The notes under the pieces are model-generated. The model was not told the origin of the DNA and did not search any database. It was given only the letters and a program-made list of their open reading frames with translations. From NCBI RefSeq assembly GCF_003334355.1, contig NZ_QOWP01000010.1: a stretch of 64,000 bases of DNA; one strand, written 5' to 3'. Origin of the DNA: Escherichia coli. GTDB taxonomy: Bacteria > Pseudomonadota > Gammaproteobacteria > Enterobacterales > Enterobacteriaceae. Positions 1,491 through 3,760 of this stretch are shown here, piece by piece; the first letter of the stretch is position 1, and each line of letters starts with the position of its first letter. The position numbers and the translations under genes were made by a program.

Positions 1491-1516
1491 TAATTGCTTA
1501 ACGAAACAGGGGCAGT

Positions 1517-2164
1517 ATGAACTATCGTATTATTCCGGTCACCGCATTCTCCCAGAACTGTTCATTAATCTGGTGTGAACAAACCCGTCTGGCCGCACTG
1601 GTCGATCCTGGCGGCGATGCGGAAAAAATCAAACAGGAAGTTGATGACAGCGGCCTGACACTGATGCAGATCCTGCTGACTCATGGTCATCTGGACCACG
1701 TTGGCGCAGCGGCGGAACTGGCGCAACATTACGGCGTGCCGGTTTTCGGCCCGGAAAAAGAAGATGAGTTCTGGCTGCAAGGCTTGCCTGCGCAAAGTCG
1801 TATGTTTGGTCTGGAAGAGTGCCAGCCGCTGACGCCAGATCGTTGGCTGAACGAAGGCGATACCATCAGCATAGGGAATGTGACTTTACAGGTGTTACAT
1901 TGCCCTGGGCATACGCCGGGTCATGTCGTGTTTTTTGATGATCGGGCAAAGCTGCTGATTTCTGGCGATGTTATTTTCAAAGGCGGAGTAGGGCGCAGTG
2001 ACTTCCCGCGTGGCGATCATAATCAACTGATTTCTTCAATCAAAGATAAATTGCTGCCACTGGGGGATGACGTGATATTTATTCCGGGTCACGGACCATT
2101 ATCCACACTTGGTTATGAACGCCTGCATAATCCCTTCCTGCAAGACGAAATGCCCGTCTGGTAA
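1517..2164 (+). CDS. gloC: metallo-beta-lactamase fold hydroxyacylglutathione hydrolase GloC (YcbL)
   Basis: ORF 1517..2164, 215 aa; HxHxDH motif ([10 protein letters not shown]) typical of glyoxalase II family. Confidence 0.9.
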
Positions 2165-2170
2165 GGCACA

Positions 2171-2196
2171 TAAAAAAGCCCGCTTTTAATGCGGGC
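2171..2196 (-). terminator. hairpin gcccgc-ttttaat-gcgggc preceded by A6 on the plus strand (U-tract on the minus strand); candidate intrinsic terminator for aspC
   Basis: inverted repeat read directly; T-tract orientation implies minus-strand termination. Confidence 0.4.
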
Positions 2197-2214
2197 CTGG
2201 ATTTCTGGCAAAGT

Positions 2215-2335
2215 GCGCTTTGTTTATGCCGGATGCGGCACGAGCGCCTTATCCGGCCTACAAAATCGTGCAAATTCAAAATATTGCAGGGGACGCGTAG
2301 GCCTGATAAGCGTAGCGCATCAGGCAATGTTGCGT
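2215..2335. repeat. REP/BIME element cluster (two REP units in opposite orientation) between convergent gloC and aspC
   Basis: gccggatgcggcacgagcgccttatccggcctac and gtaggcctgataagcgtagcgcatcaggc match the E. coli REP consensus (GCCGGATGCGGCG…/GCCTGATGCG…). Confidence 0.8.
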
Positions 2336-2349
2336 TTGTCATCAGTCTC

Positions 2350-2385
2350 AGCCCGCTTTTCAGCGGGCTTCATTGTTTTTAATGC
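2350..2385 (+). terminator. hairpin agcccgc-ttttc-agcgggct followed by a T-rich run; candidate plus-strand terminator downstream of gloC
   Basis: inverted repeat plus tcattgttttt read directly. Confidence 0.35.
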
Positions 2386-3576
2386 TTACAGCACTGCCAC
2401 AATCGCTTCGCACAGCGGAGCCATGTTATCTGGTGTCATCCCGGCCACATTTACGCGACCAGAAGCAACCGCATATACGCCAAACTCTTCGCGCAGACGC
2501 AGCACTTGTTCTTTTGTCAGGCCACTGAAGGAGAACATGCCGTTCTGTTTGATGATAAAGCTGAAGTCGCGGTTTGCGCCTTTTTCCTGCAGCGTATTGA
2601 CGAACAACTGACGCATACGCTGAATACGCTGGCGCATATCAGTCAGCTCTTGTTCCCAAATCGCACGTAACGCATCGTTGCTCAGGATGGTGGCAACAAC
2701 AGAAGCGCCGTGTGCTGGTGGGTTAGAGTAGTTAGCGCGAATCGCCGCTTTCATTTGGCTGAATGCGCGATCAACGGTTTCACTGTCGGCAGCAACCAGA
2801 GTACAAGCGCCAACACGCTCGTTGTACAGGCCAAAGTTTTTAGAGTAGGAACTGGCAACAATCAGCTCTTTATGCATAGCCGCGAAAGCGCGCAGTCCTT
2901 CAGCATCTTCTTCCAGACCACGGGCAAAACCCTGGTAAGCGAAGTCAAACAGCGGTAACCAGCCTTTCTCAACGGAGAGTTGTGCCAGTGTTTGCCATTG
3001 TTCCAGCGTAGGGTCGATACCGGTTGGGTTATGGCAGCAGCCATGGAACAGCACTACGTCGCCAGCCTGAGCTTCATTCAGGCTGTTAATCAGTGCATCG
3101 AAGTCAAGAGTGTGATTTTCCGCATCATAATAAGCGTATTCACGAACTTCCAGACCTGCAGAGTTAAAGACGCTCTTATGGTTCGGCCAGCTTGGGTTGC
3201 TCACCCACACACGCTTAACGCTGGTATTTTTTGCCAGGAAATCGGCAGCCACGCGTAGTGCGCCAGTGCCCCCCGGAGTCTGTGCCGTGCGAGCACGTTT
3301 GTCATTGATCAGGGCGCTACCTTTACCAAACAGCAGTTCCTGAGTGCAGCGACCAAATTCAGGGATGCCGTCAATGCCGAGGTAATTTTTGGTGGTTTCA
3401 TTTTCGAGCAGATACTGTTCAGCCTTTTTCACGCTGGTCAGTACCGGGGTTTTGCCCGTCTCATCTTTATAGACACCAATCCCGAGGTTAATTTTGCCGG
3501 GACGTTCATCGGCACGAAACAGATCGGCCAGGCCCAGAATCGGGTCGGCAGGAGCGGCGGTAATGTTCTCAAACAT
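2386..3576 (-). CDS. aspC: aspartate aminotransferase AspC
   Basis: ORF 396 aa; N-terminus [46 protein letters not shown] recognised as AspC. Confidence 0.97.
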
Positions 3577-3760
3577 GACGAGGTTCCATTATGGTTACAG
3601 AAGGGAAGTCCGCTATCAGGGTAACGGGAGATTTACAAAATTCCAACTATTACTGATGAAAACTCAGGCTGTTTTTGCAAGACGTGAGATTGCTCTGGAA
3701 GGTATAAAAAAAACAGGACCAAAGTCCTGTTTTTTCGGCATTTAACAAAGAGGTGTGCTA

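Follow-up and report, generated by a model that had tools for sequence, protein, structure and literature searches.

The convergent Escherichia coli genes gloC (ycbL) and aspC are separated by 221 bp, at positions 2165-2385 of the window, that is, of the whole 64,000-nucleotide stretch of contig NZ_QOWP01000010.1 that was analyzed. Each gene is 100% identical to annotated E. coli genes. The region 1500-3600 is 100% identical to many complete E. coli genomes and is colinear with K-12 MG1655, where the record coordinate equals the window position plus 982,133. Read from gloC towards aspC, the gap consists of a first hairpin (hairpin 1), a single bacterial interspersed mosaic element of type 1 (BIME-1, also called RIP or RIB) and a second hairpin (hairpin 2). 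The initial annotation had recognized here a BIME cluster with two repetitive extragenic palindromic (REP) units in inverted orientation, and had described T-tracts on opposite strands, with the gloC-proximal hairpin serving the aspC strand and the aspC-proximal one serving the gloC strand. The cluster is confirmed, far above chance, by the REP, linker and copy evidence; the two REPs, of types Y and Z1, are indeed inverted, and a terminator scan places the T-tracts as described. Both the element and its K-12 locus were already known, and the crossed look of the terminators now has an explanation. It is highly probable that a BIME-1 inserted into a single bidirectional terminator shared by gloC and aspC, duplicating its hairpin, and that hairpin 2 still serves both genes in K-12.

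The following observations show that the two hairpins are copies of one sequence. They are near-identical direct repeats, with AGCCCGCTTTT present at 2177 and again at 2350, and the 11 bases 2177-2187 are repeated exactly and in register at 2350-2360, with a spacing of 173. Hairpin 2 is identical to the only hairpin of the short allele of this gap found in O157, and hairpin 1 carries three changes relative to that hairpin. The terminator scan gave seven sites, compared with 2.4 expected in 2.1 kb, and the two best were hairpin 2 on the + strand and hairpin 1 on the - strand. The former has an 8-bp stem followed by the tail TCATTGTTTT (UCAUUGUUUUU), and the latter an 8-bp stem (2198-2176) followed by the tail TTTTTTAT. 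On the + strand the folding and sequence of hairpin 1 give a stem of just 6 bp and the tail CUGGAUUUCUGG, which is no U-tract, so that hairpin 1 has the form of an intrinsic terminator, a GC-rich stem-loop with the U-tract UUUUUUAU, on the - strand only. Hairpin 2 has no U-tract on the - strand. The folding energy of hairpin 2 is -15.6 kcal/mol on the + strand (z -4.6) and -16.5 on the - strand (z -5.6), and that of hairpin 1 on the - strand is -14.1 kcal/mol (z -2.0). Position 2193 is G in the window and T in K-12 MG1655; the T breaks the stem of hairpin 1 and weakens it on the aspC strand to -8.6 kcal/mol. Matches of the Trp_leader (25.8 bits, threshold 41) and Leu_leader models to hairpin 1 fall below threshold and were set aside as terminator look-alikes.

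The site without the element is found in many strains. The intact long gap is present in 2,811 of 5,426 complete E. coli genomes. According to an evenly spaced sample of the ranking, the gap is about 172 bp shorter in roughly 38% of the genomes, and in a few percent of them the insertion sequence IS621 lies inside the element. In the short gap the sequence is CATAAAAA-AGCCCGCTTTTCAGCGGGCT-TCATTGTTTTT, which joins the left flank to hairpin 2 and the right flank (exactly so in O157), and its one hairpin, standing between an A-tract and a T-tract, makes a single bidirectional intrinsic terminator. Among 77 other Enterobacterales with convergent gloC and aspC, the gap is at most 100 bp in 62, and in 59 of these 62 short gaps a lone, perfect GC hairpin has an A-tract on one side and a T-tract on the other; the sequence of the stem varies by genus and its structure is kept. 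As both the outgroups and the short alleles have one hairpin, the single hairpin is the ancestral state. The ends of the flanking genes differ from the window by 4-7% in the short alleles and are at least 97.5% identical to it in the long alleles, and the loops of the short-allele hairpins vary among lineages. The same insertion, sharing the quirks CTGGAYTTCTGGCA and TTCAAAATATTGCAGGG and differing in the hairpin loops, is found in a metagenome contig from a divergent Escherichia (L182) with about 5% divergence, which makes the insertion an old one. A different arrangement is seen in Enterobacteriaceae bacterium MGYG-HGUT-00110 (L026:4192-4665), where, in a gloC-aspC gap of 474 bp, one terminator hairpin precedes about four REP-pair units in tandem, an array resembling BIME-2; the hairpin there is unduplicated, unlike that at the BIME-1-type insertions.

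The block that is missing from the short alleles, together with one hairpin copy, is a 152-bp BIME-1 unit (Table 1). BIME-1 elements consist of one Y and one Z1 REP joined by a conserved long L linker, often with a site for integration host factor (IHF), and occur in single copy (PMC3333891). For comparison, paralogous copies were taken from other genomes and from one metagenome scan (at least 13 distinct loci). The orientation of the two REPs is given by the inverted-repeat pairs I2 and I3, and their alignment columns agree with 12 other copies; the Y REP folds with -19.5 kcal/mol (z -3.4). The linker contains ATTCAAAATATTG, which differs from the IHF consensus WATCAANNNNTTR by one mismatch and is a putative IHF site on the basis of this similarity. 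The termini, CAGATTGTTGACAAA on the left and TTTGTCATCAGTCTC on the right, are imperfect terminal inverted repeats: a manual count on the family consensus matches 12 of 15 positions between CAGATTGTTGACAAA and the reverse complement of the right end, GAGACTGATGACAAA. K-12 has about 70-80 BIME-1 copies. The core (2199-2349, 151 bp) has a median of 21 places per genome in the 5,426 E. coli genomes, and the end-to-end unit is kept at about a dozen other loci, mostly with a length of 150-152 bp. The gap contains one unit, not a tandem array, and on each strand the whole gap can fold as a long, imperfect palindrome (z -3.8 and -4.9).

Several annotations that overlap the gap are better read as parts of the repeat or rejected. 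The Rfam model ES036/CssrF (RF02751) matches 2262-2304 over its full length (43/43), well over the gathering score of 37.6 at 53 bits (E 2.7e-10), and this is its sole match in the window. It also matches the BIME-1 copies at satP-mog, yvcK-uvrB and fepA-entD, and ES036 thus models the repeat linker and not a unique small RNA gene. A discrete small RNA gene is not supported here, as the model comprises the L linker and the start of the Z1 REP and no K-12 3' end is called within the element; a literature search on ES036/CssrF gave nothing relevant. Partial matches of naRNA4/CssrE (at most 29.7 bits, compared with 59.5) reflect REP similarity only. The mechanical open reading frames 2079-2342(-) and 2189-2611(+), which run across the gap, were rejected as genes and are unannotated in all 5,426 genomes.

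Table 1. Features of the gloC-aspC region, in window coordinates
Feature	Position	Strand	Basis or remark
gloC (ycbL) coding sequence	1517-2164	+	Stop codon 2162-2164; open reading frame list, RefSeq annotation of identical genomes and K-12
A-tract on + strand, U-tract UUUUUUAU for the aspC strand	2168-2176	-	Found before the sole hairpin of short alleles
Hairpin 1, left, partly decayed terminator copy (AGCCCGCTTTTAATGCGGGCC)	2177-2197		Direct repeat D3, terminator scan, folding
BIME-1 (RIP/RIB) unit, inserted element, 152 bp	2198-2349		Short alleles lack this block and a hairpin copy
Left terminal motif, imperfect terminal inverted repeat, family consensus CAGATTGTTGACAAAGTGCGCTTTGTT	2198-2227		Alignment of 13 copies and the Dryocola relative
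Y-type REP, CTAC at end	2228-2261		Partial naRNA4/REP match, inverted repeats, folding, alignment
L linker with IHF-consensus-like site ATTCAAAATATTG at 2274-2286 (putative)	2262-2296		Rfam ES036 match, consensus scan
Z1-type REP, GTAG at start	2297-2325		Inverted repeats, folding, alignment
Right terminal motif (GCGTTTGTCATCAGTCTC), directly adjoining the foot of hairpin 2	2326-2349		Copy alignment
Dominant aspC 3' end (K-12 984479)	2346	-	Term-seq, SMRT-Cappable-seq; 4 nt past hairpin 2, no U-tract
Hairpin 2, right copy, working bidirectional terminator	2350-2369		Scan, folding, K-12 3' ends flanking
T-rich tail TCATTGTTTTT after hairpin 2, gloC strand	2370-2380	+	Terminator scan
aspC coding sequence	2386-3576	-	Open reading frame list, RefSeq annotation of identical genomes and K-12

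The transcript ends that tell which hairpin is used all come from published K-12 maps, obtained by Term-seq (PMC7815308) and by SMRT-Cappable-seq, which records full-length primary transcripts (PMC6131387). The gloC unit extends from 983574 to 984506(+), which corresponds to window position 2373, 4 nt past hairpin 2 (PMC6131387). By SMRT-Cappable-seq, 14 of 28 gloC reads end at this position and one passes it (PMC6131387). Transcription of gloC in K-12 crosses hairpin 1 and the whole BIME, giving a 3' untranslated region (UTR) of 209 nt that includes the REPs, and the earlier supposition that gloC uses the far hairpin is correct. Hairpin 2 is thus an intrinsic terminator on the + strand by its stem, its U-tract and the mapped gloC end. 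The corresponding supposition for aspC does not hold. The only curated Term-seq 3' end in the gap is 984479(-), listed as "primary aspC" in two conditions (PMC7815308), and SMRT-Cappable-seq gives the same end for a unit running from 985744 to 984479 (PMC6131387); two independent methods thus place the dominant aspC end at the near hairpin. By SMRT-Cappable-seq, 12 of 53 aspC reads end there and 23 pass by a median of 130 nt, and this read-through reaches into the BIME, towards hairpin 1.

The main gloC and aspC transcripts overlap by 28 nt, between 2346(-) and 2373(+), which bracket hairpin 2. The initial annotation had expected 3' UTRs that overlap across the REP elements: for the main transcripts the overlap is confined to hairpin 2, and overlaps across the BIME are formed by a minority. 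It had suggested 3'-end mapping as a check, with ends at the proximal hairpins as the contrary outcome; in K-12 this contrary outcome is found for the dominant aspC end, and gloC ends at the far hairpin. No K-12 3' end is called by Term-seq or SMRT-Cappable-seq at the U-tract of hairpin 1 (984301-984305), where K-12 carries the 2193 G>T change. Rho-dependent regions have been mapped at 984273(-), antisense to gloC, and at 984537(+), antisense to aspC (PMC7815308); since each lies in the opposite gene, some transcripts must cross the whole gap on both strands. In our reading, hairpin 2 is a working two-way terminator in K-12.

The duplication of a hairpin at a BIME-1 insertion is not confined to this gap. 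At satP-mog the site is filled in 467 genomes and empty in the rest, and the duplication is 20 bp. At fdnI-yddM the duplication is 28 bp and three alleles are found (L195, L215 and L214): an empty site, a filled site that has both hairpin copies, and a filled site that has secondarily lost the left copy (34 bp). These three alleles indicate that a BIME-1 with one hairpin can be descended from one with two. A duplicated hairpin of 24 bp can be inferred at mgtA-ridA, where no empty allele was present among the matches listed. In Pseudocitrobacter faecalis the gloC-aspC gap itself has received an independent insertion in the opposite orientation, with a duplication of 18 bp by comparison with a congeneric empty site. 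In Dryocola the same gap, again by independent insertion, holds an element with the same termini, a perfect IHF core and different inner palindromes, and the duplication is about 23 bp; in Dryocola boscaweniae (L059:4192-4395) this element is about 140 bp long, with the IHF core AATCAATAAATTG, inner palindromes that are not REPs and a duplicated terminator hairpin on its flanks. The Dryocola element suggests a wider family that is defined by its termini rather than by REPs. Altogether a terminator hairpin peculiar to the locus is duplicated on the flanks of seven filled sites; four of these have a matching empty site, and five of them are independent insertions. These whole-hairpin duplications suggest that the elements target terminator hairpins. 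The direct-repeat score of the flanks is 13-19 at 5 of 14 loci, compared with at most 9 for 180 mismatched pairs of flanks, and at 9 of the 14 loci a hairpin starts or ends within a base of the junction.

Other loci lack the duplication. At gcd-cueO a filled and an empty site (L087:470-720 and L216:130-225) show the BIME-1 at the 5' foot of a hairpin that is not duplicated, and the BIME-1 at fepA-entD has neither a flanking hairpin nor a duplication. The left junction at gcd-cueO has eight bases, GACTTGCT, in place of CCATA. At two further loci (L198 and L153) the flanks are rare or absent in E. coli, and no empty sites were retrieved for them.

It may tentatively be proposed that BIME-1/RIP and the relatives from other genera that share its termini form a family, similar to MITEs (miniature inverted-repeat transposable elements), that integrates at the feet of terminator hairpins and often duplicates the whole hairpin, the length of 18-28 bp being set by the palindrome. 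A simple model would have staggered cuts at both feet of an extruded hairpin or cruciform, followed by fill-in. Whole-hairpin duplication at BIME-1 flanks was not found described in the literature searched, which excluded the BIME papers of the 1990s, and priority for this pattern is uncertain.

With this in mind, the history and operation of the gloC-aspC gap may be pictured as follows. The 152-bp BIME-1 would have entered the ancestral bidirectional terminator, and the whole 20-bp hairpin would have been duplicated in the process, leaving one copy on each side of the element. The left copy would have kept the ancestral A-tract and the right copy the T-tract, and this partition produces the criss-crossed look. 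In K-12, gloC transcripts would then cross hairpin 1 and the BIME and stop just past hairpin 2, and the most abundant aspC species would end 4 nt past hairpin 2 on the opposite strand. As hairpin 2 has no U-tract on the aspC strand, many polymerases probably continue into the BIME. This read-through might be halted by Rho or REP-associated attenuation, by an intact hairpin 1, or by Rho in antisense gloC, and the resulting transcripts may then be trimmed back to hairpin 2. The criss-cross is a by-product of the insertion and not an arrangement that evolved for antisense control. We infer that gloC gained its long REP-containing 3' UTR, that aspC became leakier and that hairpin 1 is a decaying backstop. 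The consequences are modest: a gloC 3' UTR with REPs in it, and for aspC a near hairpin deprived of its U-tract, with more read-through.

Several points weigh against this account. Term-seq dropped reads that map to multiple places, and ends inside the REPs could therefore be under-called. Both mapped ends lie 4 nt past the stem, a distance that fits exonuclease trimming, so that they need not be the points of termination. As K-12 has T at position 2193, the published 3'-end maps test a defective hairpin 1, and in the strain of the window hairpin 1 may stop more aspC transcripts than it does in K-12. BIME-1 copies without a duplicated hairpin exist, at gcd-cueO and fepA-entD. Finally, the insertion is old, as judged from the divergent Escherichia contig, and some of the E. 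coli short alleles could thus be secondary excisions.

The last point leads to the strongest of the other explanations, in which E. coli originally had the long allele, and recombination between the 20-bp hairpin copies produced the short alleles by precise excision. The O157 short allele is exactly the product expected of such a repeat-mediated deletion, the presence of the same insertion at about 5% divergence agrees with an early origin, and fdnI-yddM provides a direct example of a hairpin copy that was lost secondarily. Bachellier et al. reportedly described, in 1997, "excisions of a whole BIME-1". The deletion scenario is nevertheless unlikely. It leaves the origin of the two hairpins unexplained, because the outgroups carry one; the differences of 4-7% in the flanks of the short alleles point to an old linked polymorphism and not to frequent recent excision; and the loops of the short-allele hairpins differ between lineages.

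The idea that came with the initial annotation was that two separate terminators came to be crossed in evolution to let the 3' UTRs overlap across the REPs and form an antisense or stabilizing pair. The T-tract orientations, the use of the far hairpin by gloC, the passage of hairpin 2 by 23 of 53 primary aspC transcripts and the Rho-dependent regions in the opposite genes, which show that some transcripts cross the gap, all speak for such a pair, as does the long imperfect palindrome formed by the full gap on either strand. Yet both hairpins are copies of one ancestral hairpin made by the insertion, the arrangement is missing in about 40% of E. coli genomes and in nearly all relatives, aspC ends predominantly at the near hairpin, and hairpin 1 is decaying, with its three changes and the stem-breaking K-12 polymorphism. 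An evolved antisense pair is therefore quite improbable. That two unrelated terminator-like hairpins came to stand beside a REP cluster by chance, through a general build-up of such features at gene 3' ends, is scarcely credible, even though convergent gene pairs are enriched in REPs as well as terminators (10.64898/2026.03.23.713779), since the hairpins share a stem and 11 identical in-register bases, exactly one copy is present at the empty site, the pattern recurs at five further insertions with locus-specific hairpin sequences, and none of the 180 mismatched flank pairs scores as high.

Insertion of BIME-1 with duplication of the hairpin is thus the preferred explanation, and the crossed terminators of gloC and aspC can be regarded as the scar of a repeat insertion; for K-12 the published maps identify the working copy. 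The site divides E. coli strains roughly in half. The mobility of REP and BIME elements has been a question for forty years, and hairpin duplication is a concrete and testable signature of it. If the proposed targeting of hairpins is true, this would be the first concrete insertion signature for the enterobacterial REP/BIME elements, and each insertion would split a bidirectional terminator into two one-directional halves.

The element has itself become a target. IS621, a member of the IS110 family of bridge-RNA recombinases, lies within the Z1 REP, at about 2300/2301, in strains of O103 and O104:H4; the copy in E. coli O103 RM8385 (L085:3242-4519) has the junctions GACGCGTAG|ATACTG and ATAATAGAA|GGCCTGATAAGCG. 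IS621 prefers REP targets, and the insertion here fits this preference. Outside the gap, Term-seq lists an orphan 3' end of very high score (334,046) at K-12 985841(-), window position about 3708, between ompF and aspC. It coincides with a canonical hairpin followed by T8, 132 nt upstream of the aspC start, and is presumably the ompF terminator. Elsewhere in the window, just two further Rfam matches exceed the gathering score, at 22566-22639(+) and 49494-49578(-): a PyrD leader, with 97.9 bits, and a tRNA.

Compared with known systems, the element in the window is no different from BIME-1/RIP/RIB (Gilson 1991; Oppenheim 1993; Boccard & Prentki 1993) and fits the description in PMC3333891 throughout. 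The accounts of BIME-1 in the literature searched, from which the papers of the 1990s were excluded, omit the 152-bp length, the terminal inverted repeats and the duplicated flanking hairpins. As regards transcription, the gap resembles the overlapping bidirectional terminators between convergent genes that were identified by SEnd-seq (Ju et al. 2019, as summarised in bioRxiv 10.1101/2022.10.23.513370): the gloC and aspC ends overlap by 28 nt across one hairpin, and the aspC strand has no U-tract, as that summary describes for the class. Hairpin 2 differs in being half of a duplicated canonical terminator; the second half, which has the matching U-tract and may act as a backstop, is found 173 bp further on.

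As a mobile unit, the element can be compared with the REPIN/RAYT system (Bertels & Rainey 2011; Nunvar 2010; Ton-Hoang 2012), which likewise has two inverted REPs and a spacer as the presumed mobile unit and shows presence/absence polymorphism. Transposition of the IS200/IS605 type by Y1 enzymes gives no target duplication (PMC3333891), whereas the insertions described here have duplications of 18-28 bp that comprise the whole target hairpin. The mechanism of REP/BIME insertion is still called unresolved in recent papers, and reviews describe REPs as being without MITE signatures (PMC3184786). The BIME-1 family consensus has the terminal inverted repeats that characterize MITEs. With bacterial MITEs such as Correia/NEMIS and ERIC the element shares a length of about 150 bp, the absence of coding sequence, imperfect terminal inverted repeats, flanking direct repeats and a long RNA stem-loop, and Correia elements likewise have an internal IHF site, which in BIME-1 is a putative one. 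The target duplications of MITEs are short and fixed (2-9 bp), whereas the length of those found here varies with the target palindrome, so that in this respect BIME-1 stands apart from the MITEs.

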